This document shows positions 4,347 to 48,550 of a DNA stretch of 64,000 bases, in pieces. The position numbers and the translations under genes were made by a program. The DNA lies in NCBI GenBank assembly GCA_963840455.1, contig CAWIYV010000014.1, positions 352,001 through 416,000 of the forward strand, in the 5' to 3' direction. The stretch comes from Nitrospirota bacterium. GTDB taxonomy: Bacteria > Nitrospirota > UBA9217. Numbering within the stretch: the first letter of the stretch is position 1; each line of letters opens with the position of its first letter. The notes under the pieces were generated by a model. It had not been told where the DNA came from. It saw only the letters and a list, made by a program, of their open reading frames with translations, and did no database searches.

Positions 4347-5153
4347 TCACATCGCTGTCTTGCTCATCTTGATCTTTCCGTGCTCGATCTTGTCATGGCA
4401 CCACAGACAGTCCACCTGTCTCTTGCCTACGTGCTTCTCGTGGATGAGCTTCACTTCGCCGATCCTGTCGGACCGGTCAACATGGCAGAAGAAGCACTTG
4501 TCCTTCGGCGTCATGCCGTCGCCCCGGGTGATCTGGGCATGGCACTGGCCGCACTTCTTGCCGGCCTTGAGCGCTGCCGCGTGGGAGAAGGTCCTGCCGT
4601 CCACTTTGATCGCCTCTTTGAGCGCGGTGTGGCACGACGGACAGCCGGTCACGGCCTCGCCGGGTTTCGCCCCCTTGAAGTGGCAGAGGTAGCAGACGTT
4701 CTTCGAGACCTTCACGTGCTCGCCCTGGACGATGTCGGAGTGGCAGCTTCGGCAGTGGAGCTTGATGCCCCTCTTCATGTCCAAGAAATGTGGCTTGTGG
4801 TCGAAGTTGATGTTCCACCTGGTGAAGAGCACTTTGGACTCCACGAGACGCTTGTCGTGGCATCCGCCCTGCAGGCAGTTTGCATCGGGTACGTTGGACA
4901 AGGGCCGCGGGTTGAACGAACCGGCCAGGAAGAGGAACTGGGACGCTACGGCCTTCTCCATTGTATACACATGGCATTTCAGGCAGGGAACGTTCTTGTG
5001 CGTTGAGGTCTTCCATTTTTCATAGAACGGCGCAATGTAGTGGCATGCCTTGCAATTCTCCGGATTAGGGAACACGACATATTTTGCCAAAACATAGAAG
5101 CCGAACGACAGCGTCACAAAGATCACTGCAATAAGGACCATGTGCTTCTTCAT
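4347..5153 (-). CDS. Membrane-anchored multiheme c-type cytochrome (8 CxxCH + 1 CX4CH)
   Basis: N-terminal TM helix. CKACH, CLKCH, CLQGGCH, CRSCH, CYLCH, CPSCH, CGQCH, CFFCH, CLWCH. ATG 5153 preceded by GGAGG. Confidence 0.9.
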   Translation of the reverse strand: MKKHMVLIAVIFVTLSFGFYVLAKYVVFPNPENCKACHYIAPFYEKWKTSTHKNVPCLKCHVYTMEKAVASQFLFLAGSFNPRPLSNVPDANCLQGGCHDKRLVESKVLFTRWNINFDHKPHFLDMKRGIKLHCRSCHSDIVQGEHVKVSKNVCYLCHFKGAKPGEAVTGCPSCHTALKEAIKVDGRTFSHAAALKAGKKCGQCHAQITRGDGMTPKDKCFFCHVDRSDRIGEVKLIHEKHVGKRQVDCLWCHDKIEHGKIKMSKTAM

Positions 5154-5538
5154 AGACCCCTCCTTCACATAGGCTTCGCTCCCTGCTTGTCCGCCGGATA
5201 CTGAGAATATAGCATCTTTTGCGGGCGACCGCGGGTATTTTGAGTAGGTCAGCGTATGCACCGTTGTGCAGGAATTCAGTCATCTCCCATCAGCATTTGC
5301 GATCACGCAGCGGCAGCTTATTGTTCGTCGGGACAGTCCTGTTACCGTATCGTTGCCGACCGCCGAGCAGCCGGAGTGGAACAGGATGAACGTTCCACCC
5401 ATGGTCAAAAGAGATGACCATCAGAGACCATAACCGTTCCAAATTATCTGGTATACTCAAAACAAGAAAAATTGTCCGTCCCCCCTCCCTCTGCGGAAGG
5501 GGGATGATGGATCCACGGAATATCGAGAGCCAGCAATT

Positions 5539-8500
5539 ATGAGCGACAGGGACAGGACCAAGACCGACCTTCAGAAAGAACTGGAGCGCCTGCGCAGGCG
5601 GATCGCGGAGCTCGAATCCCGGGGTGCGGGCGATGGGCGCCCCGAGGATCTGCGGGCGAATGAGATGCGGTGCCAGCTGCTTCTCGATACGATGATCCAC
5701 GGCGTTCAGGAGAACGACTGCTCCGGTGTGATCACGTACAGCAATCGAGCGCATCACCGGATCATGGGATATGAGCACGGCGAGCTCGTTGGCAAGACCG
5801 TCTGGCAACTGCTGCCCCCCGGTGGGGAGCAGGGAGCTTTGCGGGAGTATCTTGCCTACCTGGTGAAGGAACAGCCGAAGCCGGCCCCCTATCTCTCTGT
5901 AAGCAGAAAAAAGGACGGGTCTCTGGTCGATCTCCAGATAGACTGGGACTATCAGCGTGATGACGCGGGACGCCTGAAAGGATTTATATCGGTCATAACC
6001 GACATCACCGAGCGCAAGCAGGCCGAGGCTAACATCAGAAATGCCGCGCGGCTCTACGCCTTCCTGAGCCAGATCAACCAGGCCATCGTCCGCACCCGGG
6101 AACGCGACGAACTGTTTCGGACCATCTGCCGGGTGGCGGTCGAGTTCGGACAGTTTAGGATGGCCTGGGTCGGGCTTATCGACGAGGCAGCAGGAATCGT
6201 AAGGTCTTTCGCGCATGCAGGTCAGGAAGAGGGCTATCTGAACGTCCTTTCGATACGCATCAGCGACGAAACCACCGGCAAGGGACCTACCGGGTCCGCG
6301 CTCCGCGGAGGGGCGCTGACCATCTGCGACAATATTGCGACAGACCCCCGCATGCTGCCCTGGCGGGAAGAGGCGCTGAAACGGGGGTACCGTTCGTCAG
6401 CGGCCATCCCGTTCAGGCAGAAGGAGAAGGTCATCGGGTCGCTGAACCTGTACGCCGCGGAACCGGGCTTCTTCGCCGAGGACGAGCGGAAGCTGCTGAC
6501 GGAGATCGGCGTCGACATCTCCTTCGCACTCGACACCATGGAGAGCGAAAAAGAGCGGAAGCGGATCGAGGTGGCGCTGCGGGAAAGCGAGGAGCGCCTG
6601 AACTACATGATGTCCAACTCACCCGCGGTCATCTACACGTGCAGGCCGTCGGGCGACTTCGCCGCGACCTTCGTCAGCGAGAATGTCGTGCATCAGCTGG
6701 GATATGAAGCTTCTGCGTTCATCGCCGATCCGGGCTTCTGGGCCGCTCACATCCATCCTGATGACAAGAAACGGGTCTTTGACGGGCTTTCCGCCCTTTT
6801 TGCAGAGGGCTCGCACACACATGAATACCGGTTCCTGCACAAGGACGGGGCCTGGCGCTGGATGCATGATGAACTGAGGCTGATACGAAACGCTGCCGGC
6901 GAGCCGGTCGAGATCCTCGGCTCGTGGGTCGATATCACCGACCGCAAGCAGGCCGAGGACGCGCTCGGGGAGAGCGAGCGGAAATACCGTACCCTGTTCG
7001 ATTCTGCAACCGATGCCATCTTCATCCTCGACCTCAATGGCAATATCCTTGATATCAACCGGACCGCCCATGCCCGGCTCGGATATACGAAGCGGGAAAT
7101 GCTGTCCATGCACGTTAGCCGCCTCGATCCGCCGGAGTTCGCCGTCAGGGTCCCTGAACGGCTCACCGAGGTGTCCCGGTCCGGAGTGGCGGTCTTCGAA
7201 TCCGCCCATCTTAGGAAGGACGGTTCCGTGATGCCGGTGGAGATCAATTCCCGGCTGCTGGAATACGAAGGGCGGCAGGAGTATTTCAGCATCGTCAGGG
7301 ACATCACCGACCGCAAACGTGCCGAGGAGGCGCTCAGGGAAAGCGAGGAGCGGTTCCGGACGCTGCTTGCGCGGGTCGATTCAGTGGCGGTGCAGGGCTT
7401 CGGCCCTGACGGCGTGGTCCATTATTGGAACAAGGCCTCGGAGCGGCTATATGGCTATTCGGCGGAAGAGGCACAGGGACGCAATATTCTTGACCTCATT
7501 GCTTCCCCGGAGGCGCGCGGGCCCATTACGAACGCCATTACGCAGATGGCGGAAAGCGGGTCGCCGCTCCCTTCGTCGGAAGCGTCGCTCCTGCGGAAGG
7601 ACGGGTCGCGCGTAACGGTGTTCGCGAGTTATGCCGTGGTGAACATGCCCGGACGCGCCCCCGAACTGTACTGCATCGACATCGATCTCACCGACCGCAA
7701 GCGGTCTGAGCAGGAGCGCCTGGAGCTGGAGCGGCGGCTGCTTTATGCCCAGAAGCTCGAGAGCCTCGGGATCCTGGCCGGGGGCATCGCCCATGACTTC
7801 AACAACCTGCTGATGGCGGTCCTGGGCAACCTCGACCTTGCGCTCCGGAAGGTCTCCCCGGTCTCACCCGCCCGCGCGAACATCGAGCAGTCCGCGCAGG
7901 CCGCACGCCGCGCAACGGACCTGACGCGCCAGATGCTGGCCTATTCGGGCAAGGGCAGGTTCATCGTCAAGCCCATGGACCTGAGCGAACTCGTGGAGGA
8001 GAACACGCACCTGTTCCGGGCGAGTGTGGCCAGGACTGCGACGCTGGACATCCGCCTTGGCCGCTCGCTGCCCTCCATCGAGGCTGATGTCGGCCAGGTG
8101 CAGCAGGTGATCATGAACCTCATCACCAACGCCGCAGAAGCGATCGGAGATTCGTCCGGCAGGATCATCATCACGACCGGGATGCAGGAGTGCGACGCGC
8201 AGTGCCTGAAGCAGAGCCGGATCGAGGACGTGCCGCCTGCCGGCAGGTTCGTCTACCTGGAAGTGTCCGACACGGGGTGCGGGATGGACGAGCAGACGCA
8301 GCAGCGGCTCTTCGATCCCTTCTTCACGACCAAGGCCCCGGGCCGCGGGCTCGGGATGTCGGCGATCCTGGGCATCGTGCGAGGGCACGGGGGCGCAATC
8401 TTCGTCGAGAGCGGCCCGGGCAGGGGGACCTCGATACGCATCCTTTTCCCCGCGTTCGAAGGAGCACCGACGGAGAGCGTTGCATCGGCAGGCGCGCCCG

Positions 8501-20980: not shown

Positions 20981-21122
20981 TAAATCCAGGAGCGAGCGCA
21001 TTCCCCGTAGCATGCTGCGGGGTTAGCGAGCGATTTTACTACCCTGAGGATCGAAGATTCCCTGCAGCTTGCTGCAGGGAGCTTCAATCCAGGAATGGGC
21101 GTAGTCCGCAGTTTGCTGCAGG
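20981..21122 (+). mobile_element. Family A ~110-bp double-hairpin element (one full unit plus a partial unit)
   Basis: AATCCAGGAGCGAGCG-CCCCGTAGCATGCTGCGGGG-TTAGCGAGCG...GAGGATCGAAGATTCCCTGCAGCTTGCTGCAGGGAGCTTCA; shared with five other loci. Confidence 0.85.
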
Positions 21123-23954: not shown

Positions 23955-25052
23955 GTGGCCAAGATCCTCATAACAGGTAATGAAGCGCTTGCCGAGGCAG
24001 CCATCCGCGCCGGCTGCAAGCGGTATTTCGGCTACCCCATCACGCCGCAGAACGAGGTCCCGGAGTATATGTCGCGCCGCATGCCGGAGATCGGCGGCAC
24101 GTTCATCCAGGCTGAGAGCGAGCTCGCGGCCATCAGTATGGTCTACGGCGCGGCCGCCGTGGGCGAGCGCGCCATGACATCATCGTCGAGCCCCGGCATC
24201 AGCCTCATGCAGGAGGCGCTTTCGTACATGGCTGCATGCGAGCTCCCTGCGGTGATCGTGAACGTTCAGCGCGGCGGACCCGGGCTCGGAAGCATCTCGG
24301 CATCGCAGGCGGACTATTTCCAGGCGGTGAAGGGCGGCGGCCACGGCGACTACAAGCTCCTCGTGTACGCGCCGGCCAACCTCCAGGAGGTCGTGGACCT
24401 CACGGTGAAGGCCTTCGACAAGGCCGATGAATACCGCACGCCGGTCATGATCCTGAGCGACGGCGTGATCGGCCAGATGATGGAACCCGTGGAGCTGCCG
24501 GAGTTCGCGCTGAAGCAGCCGGACAAGCCCTGGGCCCTTACGGGTGCAAAGAAGGGAAAGCCCCCCAAGGTCATCCGTTCGCTCTTCATGCTGCCGGGCG
24601 AGGAAGGCATGCTGGAGCAGCACAACTATGATCTCAAGGCGAAATACGACCGCATGGCCGAGCGTGAGGTAATGGCCGAGACCATGCAAATGGACGACGC
24701 TGAGCTCGCCGTCGTGGCGTTCGGGACCTCGGCGCGCATCGCGAAGAGCGCTTTAGCGATCGCGCGGGACGAGGGGATCAGGGTCGGGCTCATCCGGCCC
24801 ATCACGCTCTTCCCGTTCCCGGAGAAGGTCATCGCGAAGGCGGCGGAGAAGGTCGCTCATGTTCTCGTGGTGGAGATGAATCTCGGCCAGATGGTCGAGG
24901 ACGTTCGGCTCGCGGTGAACGGCAGGGTGCCGGTCTCGTTCTACGGCAGGCCGGGCGGCGCCATCCTTGGGGTGGATGACATCGTCCAAGCGATCCGGAG
25001 CAACGCCCAGTGCGGGGCACGGAACGAAGTGTGCTCTGCCCAGCAGCTCTGA
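23955..25052 (+). CDS. vorB: 2-oxoacid:ferredoxin oxidoreductase alpha-type subunit (VorB-like)
   Basis: [33 protein letters not shown] and RGGPGLG motifs. Confidence 0.85.
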
Positions 25053-25080
25053 GTATCGGGACGCCGGGCGCGAAGGAGGA

Positions 25081-26022
25081 ATGTTCGTGGCGAAGGATAA
25101 GAGCATTCTGGATATGATCGGCAACACGCCGATGATGAAGCTTTCCCGCATTGCGAAAGCGGACAATGCCGAGGTGTGGGTGAAGCTCGAGGGGTTCAAC
25201 CCGGGCGGCAGCGTAAAGGACCGCATTGCCCTCTCCATGATCGAGGAGGCGGAGCAGCGGGGAAGGCTGAAGAAGGGCATGAAGATCGTGGAGCCCACGA
25301 GCGGCAACACCGGCATCGGGCTCGCAATGGTTGCGGCGGTGAAGGGCTATCCCATTGTGCTGACCATGCCCGAGTCCATGAGCATGGAACGCCGCCAGCT
25401 CCTGCAGGCCTATGGCGCCGAACTGGTCCTGACCCCGGCTGCCAAGGGCATGCGGGGCGCTGTGGAAAAGGCCGGCGAGATCGCGGCGTCTGGTAAAGAA
25501 TATTTCATGCCGCAGCAGTTCGAGAATCCCGCGAACGCGATGGTCCACCGTCAGACCACGGCACGTGAGATCCTCGACTTCATGGGCGGGAAGCGCATTG
25601 ACGCCTTTGTCGCCGGCGTCGGCACCGGCGGAACGATCACGGGCGTGGGCGAGGTGCTCCGGAAGAAGGTCAAGGGCGTCAGGATCTATGCTGTCGAACC
25701 GGCTGCGTCGCCGGTCCTCTCGGGCGGACAGGCCGGCCCCCATCCCATCCAGGGCATCGGCGCAGGCTTTGTGCCGAAGGTCCTGAACACCAAGGTCTAT
25801 GATGAGATCATCCAGGTGACGGCCGACGACGCGAAGGGAACGGCGAAGCGGTTGGCCATGGAAGAGGGGCTCCTCGTAGGCATTTCCTCCGGAGCCGCGT
25901 GCTGGGCTGCGCTCCAGGTCGCGGTGAAGCTCGGCAAGGGCAAGCGGGTCGTCACCGTGTTCCCCGACGGCGGTGAGCGGTACCTGTCGATGGGGGTGTT
26001 CGGCAATCCAGAAGCGAAATGA
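25081..26022 (+). CDS. cysK: Cysteine synthase A
   Basis: [22 protein letters not shown] and GVGTGGT motifs. ATG 25081 after GGAGG. Confidence 0.95.
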
Positions 26023-26140
26023 TTTCACTGCTGAGATCGCAGCCAAAAGGAGGCGCTTCTCAGCGAGAGCGCAGAGGTTTGAATTTTGGTTGCTGCTTCT
26101 TTACTTCTTGTCCGCGTGCTCCGCGTCCTCTGCGGTAAAA
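26023..26140. repeat. Family B 9-mer inverted-repeat element carrying the 24-bp micro-insert
   Basis: ACTGCTGAG ATCGCAG[..]AGCGCAGAG ... CTCCGCGTCCTCTGCGGT. Confidence 0.75.
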
Positions 26141-26159
26141 TATTTTCTCCGGAAGTAAA

Positions 26160-27284
26160 ATGAACCGCATCTACCTCGACTATAACGCCAGTACCCCCAT
26201 CGCGCCTCAAGTTCTTGAGGCGATGATGCCCTACCTTACGACGAAGTTCGGTAATCCTTCTTCCTCTCACCGCTTCGGCGTGGAATCCCGGGCAGCTATC
26301 GAGCAGGCGCGGGAGCGACTTGCGAAGCTTCTGGACTGCGAAGCATCAGAGATCATCTTTACAAGCGGCGCCACTGAGTCGAATAACATGGTGATCAAGG
26401 GGCTTGCCAAGGCTTCGGGCAAAGGCAAACATTTCATCACGTCGCAGATCGAACACCCGGCTGTGCTGGAGCCCTGCCGGCACGTCGAGCGCTTTGGCTA
26501 CACGGTCACCTATCTTCCTGTCGACCAATACGGCCTGATCGATCCGGCTGACCTAGAGAAGGCGATCACACCGGACACAGCGCTCATCACCATCATGCAT
26601 TCGAACAACGAGGTCGGCACCATCCAGGACATCAGGGCGCTCGCGAAGATCGCGGCTTCCCGCAATGTGCCGCTCCACACCGACGCAGCGCAGAGTTGCG
26701 GCAAGGTCCCGTGCAGGGTGGATGAGCTTGGCATTGACTTCCTGACCGTGGCAGGCCATAAGTTCTACGCGCCGAAGGGCGTGGGTGCACTCTATATAAG
26801 GAAGGGGACAAAACTTCCGCCGATGCTGCACGGAGCAGGCCATGAACGCGGCATGCGGCCAGGCACCGAGAATCTCGCGAGCGTCGTCGGGCTCGGCGCT
26901 GCCTGCGAGCTTGCGATGCCGCTCCTCTCGACGGAAGGGCCGCGCCAGAAGAAGCTGGGCAAGCGATTGCTCGATGGACTGAAGAATGCCGGCCTCAAGG
27001 TCCACCTGAACGGACATCCCGAGCAGAAGCTTCCGAATACCGGGAACATCAGTTTCGAGGGCTATGACGCGGCGACGGTGATGGAAGCGCTCGGGAAGGA
27101 CATCGCGGTCTCTCCCGGCGCCGCGTGCCATGGCGATACGGTGAATGCTTCCCATGTTCTCGTCGCCATGGGCGTAGACCCAAAACTCAGCCGGGGCGCT
27201 GTCAGATTTAGCCTGGGCAGGGAAACGATGGAAAAAGATATCGATGAAGTCGTCGAGATCTTGAAAAGAAAGCTGAAAAAATAG
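26160..27284 (+). CDS. iscS: Cysteine desulfurase (IscS/NifS family)
   Basis: YLDYNASTP, FTSGATE, HTDAAQ, GHKFYAPKG and SPGAACH motifs. Confidence 0.88.
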   Translation: MNRIYLDYNASTPIAPQVLEAMMPYLTTKFGNPSSSHRFGVESRAAIEQARERLAKLLDCEASEIIFTSGATESNNMVIKGLAKASGKGKHFITSQIEHPAVLEPCRHVERFGYTVTYLPVDQYGLIDPADLEKAITPDTALITIMHSNNEVGTIQDIRALAKIAASRNVPLHTDAAQSCGKVPCRVDELGIDFLTVAGHKFYAPKGVGALYIRKGTKLPPMLHGAGHERGMRPGTENLASVVGLGAACELAMPLLSTEGPRQKKLGKRLLDGLKNAGLKVHLNGHPEQKLPNTGNISFEGYDAATVMEALGKDIAVSPGAACHGDTVNASHVLVAMGVDPKLSRGAVRFSLGRETMEKDIDEVVEILKRKLKK

Positions 27285-27377: not shown

Positions 27378-27920
27378 ATGGATTGCATGATGAGAACCAT
27401 AGGTCAACTGTTTATTCTATTTTCCATGCTTCTCGAAACTGGTGCCCATGCAGCCGACAGGCTCGACAACCTTCTTATTCAAGGGGAAAACTTTAGTATA
27501 TCGGTTAAAGAACCGATGGGGTGGAAAGGTGACTCGAGCACTTCGGCAGACCGCGGAAATCTTGTGTTTCATCGAATAAATGAAAATCTTCAGAATGCCA
27601 AAGCGGTGATTCGGGTTCTTGTCGCGAATAAAACAGATGAGAATACCATCGAAGATCTGAAGTACGACATGGAAAGCTATCGAAAGCAATATCCAAAAGT
27701 TCAATTTAAAGACATTTCTGTCAAACATCCTGCGTATAGTATATATCCAAAGTTATTTTATGTTGATGCTAATTTCTATGAGTATGTTACCTATCTCAAC
27801 CCCGGCAAAAATTATCCTTACATCATATGTGTTTCCATGAATCTGAAAAAAAATGAGGCGAGCAAAGAGGATATCGAAGCGTATTCCTCTGTAATAGAAT
27901 CCTTAAAGGCGTTGAAATAG
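27378..27920 (+). CDS. Low-GC hypothetical secreted protein (cassette-like)
   Basis: AT-rich 180-aa ORF with a signal peptide (AHA); sharply different composition from its neighbours. Confidence 0.7.
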   Translation: MDCMMRTIGQLFILFSMLLETGAHAADRLDNLLIQGENFSISVKEPMGWKGDSSTSADRGNLVFHRINENLQNAKAVIRVLVANKTDENTIEDLKYDMESYRKQYPKVQFKDISVKHPAYSIYPKLFYVDANFYEYVTYLNPGKNYPYIICVSMNLKKNEASKEDIEAYSSVIESLKALK

Positions 27921-37561: not shown

Positions 37562-37766
37562 GGATCGAAGATTCCCTGCAGCCGGCTGCAGGGAATCTCT
37601 AATCGCTCGCTAACCCGGCAGCACGCTGCGGGGAATGCGCTCGCTCCTGGATTTAAGCTCCCAGATGCATACTGCATGGAGCTTCGATCCTCAGGGTAGT
37701 ACGTTTATCCTAATCGCTCGCTATTCCCGCAGCAAGCTAAGGGGAACGCGCTCGCTCCTGGATTCA
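37562..37766 (-). mobile_element. Family A tandem elements (minus strand), preceded by a TGCGGAT tract
   Basis: Two CGCTCGCTCCTGGATT units with CCCGCAGC/GCTGCGGG-type hairpins. Confidence 0.85.
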
Positions 37767-43616: not shown

Positions 43617-45308
<1,692 letters not shown>

Positions 45309-45311
45309 CGG

Positions 45312-45396
45312 CAGTTCAAAGCGCACAGTTCAAAGTTCATGGTGTGCATGCACAGTCTGTTTTTTCTCTGAACGACGAACTCAGAACTCTGAACTG
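45312..45396. repeat. 7-nt-period inverted element
   Basis: CAGTTCA AAGCGCA CAGTTCA AAGTTCA ... TGAACGA CGAACTC AGAACTC TGAACTG. Confidence 0.75.
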
Positions 45397-45404
45397 GAGG
45401 TATC

Positions 45405-45644
45405 ATGGACCAGGACATCGAGAAGATCAAAGCGGTCATTGCGGAGAAGAGCAAGCGGTACCAGTCAAAGATGGGCGAAGTGACCTTCGCCGGCATCGAG
45501 GGCGGTACCGTGAAGATCGCTCCGTCGGGCTTCTGCTGGCGTTGACACGTCACCCGGATAGCCCTGGTCGAGGGCTTGCAAAAGGAGCTGAGCGCGGCGT
45601 TCCCCTGGGTCAAAAGGGTCATTGTGGTCAGGCCGGAGCCGTGA
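45405..45644 (+). CDS. Putative selenoprotein, NifU/Nfu C-terminal-like, 79 aa with CxxU
   Basis: GGAGG RBS and ATG 45405. In-frame TGA 45543-45545 in GFCWR-U, followed by 32 more codons (HVTRIALVEGLQKELSAAFPWVKRVIVVRPEP). GCCCT-GGTCG-AGGGC hairpin downstream of the UGA. Confidence 0.75.
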
Positions 45645-45909
45645 ATCCAAGAGCGAGTGCGCCCCCCGCGGCTTATCGCGGGGTTAGCGAACGAATAGAA
45701 TAACGATAGTTCCTTGAGGATCGAAGCTCCATGCCTCTTGCAATAGGGAGCTTGAATCCAGGAGCGAGCGTAATCCCCGCAGTTTGCTGTCGGGTTAGCA
45801 AGCGATTAGGATAAATATATATCCTGCGGATCGAAGATTCCCTGCAGCGGGGCTGCAGGGAGCTTCAATCCAGGAGCGAGCGCATTCACTGCAGCTTGCC
45901 GCAGAGAGG
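45642..45909 (+). mobile_element. Family A tandem array (~2.4 units, starts 45643, 45754, 45866)
   Basis: Repeated AATCCAGGAGCGAGCG...GGGAGCTT units. Confidence 0.88.
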
Positions 45910-45929
45910 TGCAATTGCACAAAAAAAGC

Positions 45930-45958
45930 TTGAATTCCCGTGGTGAAGTGCCTATAAT
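45930..45958 (+). promoter_or_regulatory. Sigma-70-type promoter
   Basis: TTGAAT-17-TATAAT upstream of GGAGG and ATG 45982. Confidence 0.65.
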
Positions 45959-45981
45959 TTACTCCATTGGAGGCTCACACC

Positions 45982-46212
45982 ATGGCCGATGATGCTTTAA
46001 GACTGAAGCTCACCCCCCAGCAGAGTGCAGAGATCAAGAAGCAGATCGGTTTCGAGCTTACTGAGATCTATCTCACCAAGCGTGCCTTGAACAAGCTCAG
46101 GGTGTTCCGGCTCCGCCTCAGCGAGGACCAGCAACAGAGCATCGCCGATGCCTGGGGGCAGAAGGTGAAGGAACTGACGGTTACGCGGTCGGTGGCAACG
46201 CGGATCATGTAG
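45982..46212 (+). CDS. Small hypothetical protein with an internal duplication
   Basis: Own promoter and RBS. LRLKLTPQQSAEIKKQIGFELTEI aligns with FRLRLSEDQQQSIADAWGQKVKEL. Confidence 0.75.
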   Translation: MADDALRLKLTPQQSAEIKKQIGFELTEIYLTKRALNKLRVFRLRLSEDQQQSIADAWGQKVKELTVTRSVATRIM

Positions 46213-46306
46213 TTAGTACCGGTCCCGTCCGGTGCCCGCATGGCCCCTTCAGATACTATTTATCCTGTTCATTCTGACGACATACCATGAAAGGAGGTGA
46301 CCTTCC

Positions 46307-46504
46307 TTGAGAAAACTGTTCGCAGTACTGCTTTCATTGCTTATCGTAGCGGCATTCGTTCTTATCGGCTGCGAGAAGAAGCCCGCACCCCCGAAACCTG
46401 CCCCGGCCCCGGTGGTAACGCCGCCGCCCGCACCGGCTCCCGCACCGGCGCCAGCTCCGGCACCGACGCCAGCTCCGGCACCTGCGAAGCCCGCGAAGAA
46501 GTAA
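46307..46504 (+). CDS. Small Pro/Ala-rich lipoprotein
   Basis: AAGGAGGTG RBS, TTG start, lipobox LIGC, (PA)n tail and a terminator downstream. Confidence 0.75.
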   Translation: MRKLFAVLLSLLIVAAFVLIGCEKKPAPPKPAPAPVVTPPPAPAPAPAPAPAPTPAPAPAKPAKK

Positions 46505-46538
46505 TAGCCTGCGGGAACGATCAGCTTGAGATCCTATC

Positions 46539-46566
46539 AAGGCCCCCGTCTGGGGGCCTTTTCTTT
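46539..46566 (+). terminator. Rho-independent terminator
   Basis: AAGGCCCCC-GTCT-GGGGGCCTT followed by TTCTTT. Confidence 0.75.
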
Positions 46567-46756
46567 GGCGAGAGCAAGGGCTGACCGCGCACCGGATGCA
46601 AAGGGCGCCTTGGATTCAACATCATTTGCCGCCGAGAACTTGGCCGCAGACCACAGGCAGGTTCACCGGGAGAGGCCATGATCAGGAGCATGCTCGGCTT
46701 TCCTCTGTGTCCTCGGGGGTGAACAATAGGTTCTTCTCTTTCTTCATACATCATTT

Positions 46757-48550
46757 ATGAACAGACTCACCACAGAGATGCTTTCCGATATCCTGCTCAG
46801 GGCGGGGAAGATCGGGCCCGAGCAGGCAAAAGAGATCAAGTTGAAGCAGGACGTCCAGCGGATGAAGATCCTGAAGGCCCGGGGCGACCATCTCCGGGGC
46901 AGGGTGCATCTCGAGGACGAGGTGTCCGCCATCGAGGTCGCCGTGAGCCTTGAGCTGGAGCTGCCCGGAGAGCCCGGCAAGAAGCTCACCGAGGACATGA
47001 TCACCGAGGCCGTTGCCCGGCATGCCGGCATGCCGTTCAAGAAGATCGATCCTCTGATGCTCAATCCCGAGATCGTCACCCAGATTCTTCCCCGGGCCTT
47101 TGCCCGAAAGAACAGCGCCGTGCCGATCGAGCGGGCCGAGGACAAGCTCATTGTCGCCGTCTCGGACCCTTACAACCTCGAGGTCGTGGAGAACATCGAG
47201 CGGATGGGGTATAAGGTCGCCCGCGTGCTGTCGCCCAAGACGGACATCCTGAAGATCATCACCGAGTTCTACGGGTTCCGGTCCTCGGTGAGCGCTGCGG
47301 CCAAGGAGATGGGCTCGGAGGTGGACCTGGGGAACCTCGAGCAGTTCGTGAAGATGAAGGCCGTGAGCGAGATCGAGGCCACGGACAAGCACATCGTGAA
47401 CGCCGTGGAGTTCCTGTTCCGCTATGCCTTCGACCAGCGGGCCAGCGACATCCACATCGAGCCCAAGCGCGACCATTCCGAGGTCCGGTTCAGGATCGAC
47501 GGCATGCTCCACACGATCCATAAGGTCCCGAAGCAGGTGCACCCGGCGTTCGTCTCGCGCGTCAAGATGCTTTCCCGCATGGACATCGCCGAGAAGCGCC
47601 GGCCCCAGGACGGCCGCATCAAGACCGAATACAAGGGCCGCGAGGTCGAGTTCCGCGTGTCCACCATGCCCGTGGCCTTCGGCGAGAAGGTGGTCCTCAG
47701 GATCTTCGACCCCGACATCATCCTGCAGGACCTGGAAGAACTGGGATTCTCGCCGCGGGAATACGAGCTGTTCCGTTCCTTCATCACGCGGCCCCACGGC
47801 ATCATCCTCGTCACCGGCCCAACGGGGAGCGGCAAGACCACAACGCTCTATTCGGCCCTCAAGACCATTTCCACTCCTGAAGTGAACGTGATCACCGTCG
47901 AGGATCCCATTGAAATGGTCTATGACCGCTTCAACCAGGTAGGCGTCCAGCCGCAGATCGGCGTCACCTTCGGCACGACGCTGCGGACCATCCTGCGTCA
48001 GGACCCGGACGTCATCATGGTGGGCGAGGTCCGCGATCTCGAGACCGCCGAGAATGCTGTTCAGGCTTCCCTGACCGGCCATCTGGTCTTCTCGACCCTG
48101 CACACCAACGATGCGCCCAGTTCCATCACCCGTCTCCTGGACCTGGGTCTGCCGGCATACCTCATCGCTTCCACGGTCGTGGGCATCATGGCCCAGAGGC
48201 TGCTGCGGAAAATCTGCAAACACTGCGAACGGTCGTACCAGCTGCTGCCCGAAGAGGCCGCTGCCGTGGGCCTCGCTTCGGACCTGAGCAAACCCATCAT
48301 GGTGAAGTACGGCGAGGGCTGCGCCCAGTGCCGGGGCACCGGCTACCTCGGCAGGACCGGCATCTTCGAGGTCATGGAAGTGAACGACAAGATCCGTCCG
48401 CTGGTCACCGAGAAGGCCGATGCCGAGTTCATCAAACGGACGGCCATTGCGGACGGTATGGTGCCCCTCCGCGAGGGAGCGGTCCGGAAGATGCTGAACG
48501 GCGAGACGACGTTCGATGAAGTGATCCGCGTGACGGGGGAGAAGATCTGA
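46757..48550 (+). CDS. GspE/PilB family secretion/pilus assembly ATPase
   Basis: ASDIHIEP, RPQDGRI, GPTGSGKTTT, LRQDPD, STLHTND and two CxxC motifs. Confidence 0.93.
   Translation: MNRLTTEMLSDILLRAGKIGPEQAKEIKLKQDVQRMKILKARGDHLRGRVHLEDEVSAIEVAVSLELELPGEPGKKLTEDMITEAVARHAGMPFKKIDPLMLNPEIVTQILPRAFARKNSAVPIERAEDKLIVAVSDPYNLEVVENIERMGYKVARVLSPKTDILKIITEFYGFRSSVSAAAKEMGSEVDLGNLEQFVKMKAVSEIEATDKHIVNAVEFLFRYAFDQRASDIHIEPKRDHSEVRFRIDGMLHTIHKVPKQVHPAFVSRVKMLSRMDIAEKRRPQDGRIKTEYKGREVEFRVSTMPVAFGEKVVLRIFDPDIILQDLEELGFSPREYELFRSFITRPHGIILVTGPTGSGKTTTLYSALKTISTPEVNVITVEDPIEMVYDRFNQVGVQPQIGVTFGTTLRTILRQDPDVIMVGEVRDLETAENAVQASLTGHLVFSTLHTNDAPSSITRLLDLGLPAYLIASTVVGIMAQRLLRKICKHCERSYQLLPEEAAAVGLASDLSKPIMVKYGEGCAQCRGTGYLGRTGIFEVMEVNDKIRPLVTEKADAEFIKRTAIADGMVPLREGAVRKMLNGETTFDEVIRVTGEKI

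Follow-up and report, generated by a model that had tools for sequence, protein, structure and literature searches.

The locus described here raises a simple question: does an in-frame TGA inside a short gene related to the NifU/Nfu domain end translation after 46 residues, or is it decoded as selenocysteine (Sec, U), so that the product is a protein of 79 residues? The gene lies in a stretch of 64,000 nucleotides (nt), referred to below as the window, from a Nitrospirota bacterium (UBA9217; assembly GCA_963840455.1, contig CAWIYV010000014.1, positions 352,001-416,000, forward strand). An earlier note on this DNA had proposed a NifU/Nfu-like selenoprotein of 79 residues with a C-W-R-U motif, a proposal that is now supported by Pfam matching, alignment of a family profile, a fold model and the comparison of orthologues. 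Together, these lines of evidence make it very likely that 45405-45644 is one gene for an Nfu-domain protein in which a UGA is decoded as Sec, and they indicate that this selenoprotein family is real and probably new.

The features of the gene (called the Nfu-Sec gene below) are collected in Table 1. Each element that had been listed for it, namely the GGAGG, the ATG at 45405, the TGA at 45543-45545, the 32 further open codons and the TGA at 45642, was found at its place on the sequence. The start codon (ATG, 45405-45407) opens a run of 46 codons upstream of the internal TGA, the last of which read ...VKIAPSGFCWR, and 32 sense codons (HVTRIALVEGLQKELSAAFPWVKRVIVVRPEP) separate the internal TGA from the one at 45642-45644, near which protein conservation among relatives fades. 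Overlapping open reading frames (ORFs) at 45008-45622 (-), 45344-45700 (+) and 45468-45650 (-) have no match to a Pfam family. An open frame around a TGA is, by itself, mostly not more than chance provides, as the six frames of the window (60% G+C) contain 379 in-frame TGAs flanked on either side by 25 or more open codons. The signal at this locus rises above chance because the NifU match is complete only on read-through, and because the TGA is kept in every sequence compared, with purifying selection in frame.

Table 1. Positions of the elements of the Nfu-Sec gene in the window
Feature	Position	Strand	Remarks
Shine-Dalgarno-like GGAGG	45396-45400	+	4 nt 5' of the start codon; read directly
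Coding sequence, 79-residue Nfu/NifU-domain selenoprotein (M1-P79, U47)	45405-45644	+	translated with TGA=U; terminal TGA counted in
Cys44 codon, first residue of C-x-x-U	45534-45536	+	TGC in 12/12; aligns with first CxxC Cys of NFU1/HIRIP5
In-frame TGA, proposed selenocysteine codon U47	45543-45545	+	TGA in 12/12; aligns with second CxxC Cys of NFU1
Hairpin resembling a selenocysteine insertion sequence (SECIS), loop GGUCG at 45566-45570	45560-45576	+	within the bounds of the bacterial SECIS (bSECIS) model in 12/12
True stop, TGA	45642-45644	+	second in-frame stop TGA in 11/12, TAA in L010

When the read-through product was compared with the Pfam NifU family (PF01106), with U scored as C, the whole profile (1-67/67) aligned to residues 8-73 at 34.1 bits (expectation value, E, 3e-8), whereas the 46-residue stub reached 13.7 bits (E 0.072). 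In this hidden Markov model check, which had been suggested with the original prediction, the gathering cut-off of 27 bits is therefore passed only on read-through. A profile of 13 full-length family sequences also matched five solved NifU-like domains (1veh, 2m5o, 1xhj, 2z51 and 2jnv), with E-values from 4.8e-6 to 2.3e-3 against the NFU1, HIRIP5 and NifU domain structures. In the three alignments displayed, G-F-C-W-R-U falls on G-S-C-T-S-C of NFU1/HIRIP5 and on G-A-C-G-T-C of 1xhj. The counterpart of U47 is thus the second Cys of C-T-S-C in the former and of C-G-T-C in the latter, which bears out that the UGA takes the place of the second cysteine in a CxxC motif. The motif of the window protein reads G-F-C-W-R-U-H; it keeps the C-x-x-C spacing and register, but with a TGA, read as Sec, at the second position and with atypical residues between and after the two.

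The generic NifU and NfuA models of NCBIfam matched only in the region of the C-terminal domain, with 12-21 bits overall against cut-offs of 268-273. For example, the NfuA models (TIGR03341, NF008392) and the model for NifU proper (TIGR02000) gave 19.3, 12.3 and 11.9 bits, where 273.3, 269.35 and 268 are needed, and judged by these scores the window protein is neither an NfuA nor a NifU-proper equivalog. An AlphaFold2 model computed from a 13-row alignment (predicted local distance difference test, pLDDT, 86.3; predicted template modelling score, pTM, 0.73) contains a helix (residues 2-20), two strands (25-32 and 35-41), a second helix (48-65) and a last strand (71-74), a layout that therefore puts C44 and U47 in the loop entering helix 2. 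A Foldseek search of the PDB with this model returned the C-domain of NFU1 (2m5o) first, with a template modelling score on the query (TMq) of 0.76, followed by CnfU (2z51) and HIRIP5 (1veh); the E-values of these top matches were 2e-5 to 4e-4 and their TMq values 0.71-0.76.

Orthologous loci allow the region after the TGA to be examined directly. The comparison set comprised 12 sequences, the window and 11 loci (labelled from L001, the closest relative) that were obtained in one scan of genome contigs and that all come from metagenome-assembled genomes of Nitrospirota. In all 11 loci the tblastn match runs across the stop, from query residues 1-4 to residues 74-79, and all 12 sequences have TGA as the codon for U47. 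In the related loci this TGA is followed by the pattern H-[V/I/A/L]-T-R-[I/V]-A-L-V-x-G-L-[Q/E]-...-F-[P/T]-W-V-..-V-[I/V]-V. At the Shine-Dalgarno position L001 has GGAGA, and the other loci are without a conserved upstream region. Wherever flanks are visible, the gene stands in a block with the order dxr, rseP, ispG, proS, Nfu-Sec gene, a conserved segment of ~650 nt, a gene for a pilB-like ATPase, one for a CNNM transporter, mdh and fumA. Since this order is common to the loci and the neighbouring proteins are 59-98% identical among them, the loci are regarded as orthologues inside one lineage, whose depth is considerable (mean synonymous difference 0.52-0.54). Two departures from the common arrangement were seen: in L003 (4051-5995) ~1.9 kb separates proS from the Nfu-Sec gene, compared with ~100-150 nt in the others, and in L009 and L011 the gene for the pilB-like ATPase is missing between the small-gene unit that follows the Nfu-Sec gene and the CNNM transporter gene.

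These sequences bear on the possibility that the TGA is a true stop, in which case the product would have 46 residues, and what follows would be decaying, translated on its own as the second half of a split gene, or conserved only at the level of RNA or DNA. Such a reading agrees with public annotation, which ends at the TGA, and with the use of TGA as a normal stop in this organism. However, the median ratio of nonsynonymous to synonymous change (dN/dS) is 0.165 over the 28 codons after the TGA, compared with 0.247 before it, and the variable columns in these 28 codons number 16, 8 and 24 at the first, second and third codon positions, respectively. The +1 frame after the TGA contains a total of 27 stops in the 12 sequences. 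In addition, no restart codon past the TGA is conserved, as GTG at +2 (after His48) is present in 4/12 sequences and TTG at +11 in 7/12. Because the constraint is in frame and codon-periodic, and because a conserved restart is lacking, decay, a split gene and a constraint on RNA only are ruled out. The stub would also be half a domain, without helix 2 and strand 3, so that termination at this TGA is exceedingly improbable. It had been foreseen that homologues ending at the UGA, or losing conservation beyond it, would undermine the proposal; instead, 11 of 11 loci keep the TGA together with a conserved, codon-periodic 3' part.

A change in the genetic code of the whole organism can be set aside. 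TGA terminates 16 of the 38 window genes that have Pfam or NCBIfam support, and it serves as the terminator of the Nfu-Sec gene itself in 11 of the 12 sequences. As TGA is an ordinary stop here, genome-wide reassignment is excluded and any recoding must be local.

A local signal of the expected kind is present. The hairpin downstream of the UGA has six pairs (A-GCCCU / AGGGC-U), and its first loop G lies 20 nt past the A of the UGA. According to a published description of the bSECIS model (PMC13188914, legend to Fig. 2), the apical loop of such an element measures 3-9 nt and its upper stem 4-16 bp, and 16-37 nt lie between UGA and loop. The first two loop positions include a G, with G or U after it in most cases, and the folding energy does not exceed -7.5 kcal/mol. 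All 12 sequences fall within these bounds, with loops of 3-6 nt, stems of 6-10 pairs and a spacing of 20-21 nt. The energy of the hairpin alone ranges from -9.4 to -13.5 kcal/mol, and the loops are GGUCG, GGUCAG, GUC or GUU (G, then G or U). A SECIS-like hairpin with its loop G about 20 nt past the UGA, as the earlier note had described it, is thereby confirmed. Synonymous change is suppressed exactly at the hairpin: the codons inside it are frozen (Ala+6, GCC in 12/12; Leu+7, CTG in 12/12; Val+8, GTC in 11/12), whereas invariant residues elsewhere are spelled by two to five codons. Of the hairpin cells in the alignment of the 12 sequences, 97.2% are paired. Covariation is seen at the closing pair, where codons change conservatively: it is A-U in eight (Ile-ATA/Leu-UUG), G-C in two (Val-GUG/Leu-CUG), G-U in one and a mismatch in one. 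Long-range pairs that RNAalifold placed beyond the hairpin (95 columns) were dropped, being nearly invariant or partly broken.

Searches of larger protein collections indicate how widely the family extends and how it has been annotated. A first search with the window protein against 5.8 billion protein clusters gave 43 matches, 41 of which stop exactly at ...G-[F/Y]-C-W-R; one further match, P0004, continues in what appears to be another frame. The sole full-length relative in the protein collection is P0003, a metagenomic sequence of 102 residues in which W, G and P replace C44, U47 and H48 and which is 69% identical outside the replaced positions. P0003 may represent a derived form that has lost selenium and ligands, or may be a variant introduced by assembly. 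When 1.84 billion representatives were searched with a profile of the family, 61 matches were obtained, which were classed by the range of the profile they cover. N-terminal pieces with the same end point account for 13 of them, C-terminal fragments starting just past it for 5, and ordinary NifU-domain proteins, with E-values of 1.1e-6 or worse, for 39. The remaining P0049, P0063, P0073 and P0083 (733-1372 residues, with 3-12 short stretches each) are regarded as spurious. P0049, for example, is a tandem-repeat protein in which F-A-G-H-D-G-G-F ... F-L-W-R recurs, and its similarity is probably due to chance or low complexity. When 24 of the 61 were inspected, ten Cys forms were seen, with small residues between the cysteines and, in 7/10, a Pro after the second.

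A profile of seven distant N-terminal pieces, searched at lengths of up to 90 residues, gave 121 matches, 120 of which were listed. Among the listed matches, 119 end at C-x-x, mostly as GYCWR, GFCWR, GYCYR or GYCHR, and within this length range none is a full-length Cys form. The common truncation point suggests that a TGA and a SECIS would also be present in the distant branch (GYCWR, GYCYR, GYCHR). Altogether, 160 of 163 related clusters at 90% identity end exactly at C-x-R. The source labels, where an entry carries one, are Nitrospirae, Nitrospirota or Thermodesulfovibrionales in 9/9 cases, and most entries are unlabelled. In public databases the gene appears as entries of 46-49 residues named 'NifU family protein', 'NfuA' or 'hypothetical protein', plus separate C-terminal fragments. 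The gene is thus systematically mis-annotated, and the selenoproteome of a phylum-level group would be put right by a dedicated model.

As far as could be traced, such a protein has not been described before. The words 'NifU' and 'Nfu' have 0 occurrences in the main text of a May 2026 review (PMC13188914) and of a 2022 review (PMC9312934), and Table 1 of the former, with 119 families or subfamilies, has no PF01106 entry. NCBIfam 20.0 contains no dedicated model and offers only the weak generic NifU/NfuA matches. No description of an Nfu-type selenoprotein was found in openly readable full texts, and the supplements of large selenoproteome screens could list the family. It is therefore probably a selenoprotein family that is new but based on a known domain.

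Several observations weigh against the interpretation of this gene as a Sec-containing cluster carrier. First, covariation in the hairpin is weak, as there is one compensatory pair and 55/500 shuffles reach the observed score, so that the hairpin is conserved but not proven by covariation; being short and almost invariant, it leaves little covariation to be found. Its folding energy does not stand out from that of shuffled sequences (z +0.77 and +1.03; 150/200 and 174/200 shuffles fold at least as well). Rfam has no family at gathering score in the window, and a scan of 45380-46800 by Rfam E-value gave weak matches at chance level and no SECIS family. Second, since the 12 DNA sequences share one syntenic lineage, the kept TGA is inherited and not independently recurrent. 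Third, no close orthologue with Cys was found in the cluster and representative searches. The alternation of Cys and TGA at codon 47 that the earlier note had hoped to see is thus absent from the 12 sequences, all of which have TGA, and the Cys forms are distant Nfu proteins alone. For lack of a close Cys orthologue, the classical Sec/Cys pair rests on these distant proteins (23-29% identity, matched in structure); for the same reason, Sec seems indispensable in this family. Fourth, the motif has Trp-Arg between the ligand positions and His after Sec, unlike the small residues and Pro of the ten inspected Cys forms, and these bulky surroundings (C-[W/Y/H]-R-U-H) may argue against plain cluster ligation. 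Finally, family scans of 65 chosen window ORFs found no selA, selB, selC or selD, and neither the whole window nor the 11 loci contain any tRNA, hence no tRNA(Sec).

With regard to the last point, the relevant passage of one study describes a selB gene that overlaps selC in a groundwater lineage of Nitrospirae (PMC8124441). A passage of another describes selC* tRNA(Cys) genes, which resemble tRNA(Sec), in anaerobes including Thermodesulfovibrio, and possibly in Nitrospirae, and states that genomes with selC* also had the complete Sec apparatus (PMC5389517). Sec use in this phylum is plausible in the light of these reports. The existence of selC* also leaves a small chance that Cys is inserted instead of Sec. 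More generally, the UGA might be read via SECIS and SelB, or by near-cognate suppression, with a residue other than Sec at position 47, either Cys (by a selC* tRNA(Cys)) or Trp (by leaky read-through). Sequence evidence does not separate Sec from Cys at this position, but for Cys a TGC or TGT codon would suffice. Yet TGA is kept throughout the 12 sequences, and nearly all of the related clusters share one truncation point. As the anaerobes reported to have selC* also carried the Sec apparatus, a residue other than Sec is considered very improbable.

If Sec is the residue inserted, the internal UGA at 45543 would not act as a stop. Instead, as the anatomy of the locus suggests, the hairpin 20 nt downstream would act as a bacterial SECIS and would guide SelB, loaded with Sec-tRNA(Sec), to the ribosome, with selenocysteine as residue 47 of the product. 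By alignment and model, U47 occupies the position of the second CxxC cysteine, where helix 2 begins; the corresponding loop of NFU1 ligates a transferable [4Fe-4S] cluster. A bridging [4Fe-4S] cluster could then be held by Cys44 and Sec47, either from both subunits or from the protein together with a carrier partner, and ligation by a selenolate might tune the ease of cluster uptake or release. The function proposed for the protein, tentatively, is accordingly that of a late-acting iron-sulfur (Fe-S) cluster carrier of the Nfu type. In a more specific and more speculative version, it may be an obligately selenium-dependent Nfu carrier that occurs Nitrospirota-wide, including Thermodesulfovibrionales, and has no Cys version, in which the selenolate of U47 ligates a transferable [4Fe-4S] cluster and a pocket of Trp/Tyr-Arg and His serves to control its release or to protect it from oxidation.

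The same gene model would also accommodate a different chemistry, in which C44-x-x-U47 is not a cluster ligand but a redox-active selenenylsulfide couple at the N-terminus of a helix, with a role in the reduction of disulfides or persulfides, or as a sulfur or selenium relay during cluster assembly. Thioredoxin-like activity has reportedly been seen for the human NFU C-domain. The motif lies in the loop directly before model helix 48-65, and its conserved bulky or charged residues, as opposed to the small residues and Pro of the ten Cys-type Nfu proteins, would suit such a role. Furthermore, a passage of the 2026 review states that most prokaryotic selenoproteins carry redox motifs (CxxU, UxxC) and probably have redox functions (PMC13188914). 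Against these points stands the fold, which is that of Nfu and not that of thioredoxin, and no redox partner gene adjoins the locus among the window ORFs scanned or in the locus comparison. In the part of PMC10388178 that concerns it, the NFU1 C-domain is described as binding [4Fe-4S] through its CXXC, and a change of either cysteine as abolishing binding, so that the homologous cysteines are cluster ligands. A redox function is regarded as the main alternative but as rather unlikely, and the role of a cluster carrier is retained.

The neighbourhood of the gene offers a lead for the function of this putative carrier. The gap from proS to the Nfu-Sec gene is 96 nt, with no call of a promoter or a terminator inside it; membership in the uppS-proS operon, at the end of which the gene had been placed, is plausible. 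The product of ispG is a [4Fe-4S] enzyme, and carriers of the NfuA/ErpA type serve IspG and IspH in E. coli. Because the Nfu-Sec gene shares a conserved block with ispG, IspG is suggested as a candidate client. However, as all loci come from one lineage, the order dxr-rseP-ispG-proS-gene is no independent evidence of a functional link, and the conserved ispG/proS neighbourhood is a lead for function rather than evidence.

Other features of the window were recorded in passing. A dispersed intergenic repeat of ~111 nt, with the core AATCCAGGAGCGAGCG, is present in three tandem copies at 45634-45968, starting on the stop codon of the Nfu-Sec gene; at this site the repeat is shared with the closest relative L001 only. 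Further copies, often as tandem pairs ~110 nt apart, lie near 20983, 21086, 38562, 38672 and 63667 (+) and near 37764, 37653 and 62811 (-). The conserved small-gene unit downstream of the Nfu-Sec gene (45930-46570; ~650 nt, 70-79% identical in L002-L007) includes a sigma-70-like promoter (TTGAAT-17-TATAAT, 45930-45958), an ORF for 76 residues (45982-46212), an ORF for a Pro/Ala-rich, lipoprotein-like product of 65 residues (46307-46504) and a G+C-rich hairpin with a T-run near 46540-46570; above-threshold matches to Pfam or NCBIfam families are lacking for both ORFs. At 24967-27284, cysK (cysteine synthase A, 449 bits) precedes a gene for a cysteine desulfurase of the NifS/IscS type, which lies 18 kb upstream of the Nfu-Sec gene. 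The desulfurase scores 454.8 bits on FeS_nifS, under the equivalog cut-off of 530.75, and its match to the selenocysteine lyase SclA is far below the cut-off of that model. The next ORF, 27378-27920, matches no family. A gene for a NapC/NirT-like multihaem cytochrome c, with a Cytochrome_C7 match, lies at 4347-5261 (-). The scan of 379 TGAs was uninformative as a search for a second selenoprotein gene in the window; the one candidate examined, a TGA read-through with a C-U context at 5290-6216 (-) adjoining the cytochrome gene, is antisense to a gene for a PAS/GAF histidine kinase and in a different frame, and appears to be a spurious, junk ORF.

If the proposed gene model is correct, an Nfu-type Fe-S biogenesis factor joins the selenoproteins, among which the HesB-like family is the only one resembling a carrier in the 2026 inventory, and the family becomes a natural test case for the advantage of selenium over sulfur at an Fe-S ligand or a site of the CxxC type. 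The hairpins of all 12 sequences resemble the bSECISearch model in loop, stem, G position, spacing and energy; they differ from it in that the present hairpin is short, almost invariant and without a match in Rfam. Cys homologues of the HesB-like family act in Fe-S cluster biogenesis. The HesB-like (A-type carrier) selenoprotein (TIGR01911; motif UxGP; PMC13188914, Table 1) sets a precedent for a carrier with Sec at a position presumed to ligate the cluster. Its fold and family are unrelated, and its motif and Sec position are unlike those of the Nfu-Sec protein; TIGR01911 is absent from the NCBIfam matches of the window protein at E up to 1. The CxxU redox selenoproteins, such as SelW-like and AhpD-like proteins and GrdA (PMC13188914), have the same C-x-x-U spacing with Sec as the C-terminal member, but they have thioredoxin-like, AhpD-like or other folds, whereas the window protein has the Nfu fold.

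The closest known systems are the C-domain carriers of the Nfu/NifU type, namely human NFU1 (2m5o), mouse HIRIP5 (1veh), Arabidopsis CnfU (2z51) and S. epidermidis SE0630 (1xhj), with which the window protein shares its domain by Pfam, profile and fold. The order helix-strand-strand-helix-strand is common to both, and the Gly before the motif and both ligand positions are in register with the G-x-C-x-x-C of Nfu. The window protein differs from these carriers in being a single domain of 79 residues without an N-domain. The Cys-type Nfu forms inspected have C-x-x-C-P with small residues, where the Sec family has C-[W/Y/H]-R-U-H, and the second ligand, a cysteine in the Nfu carriers, is encoded by TGA, and thus probably Sec, in the window protein.

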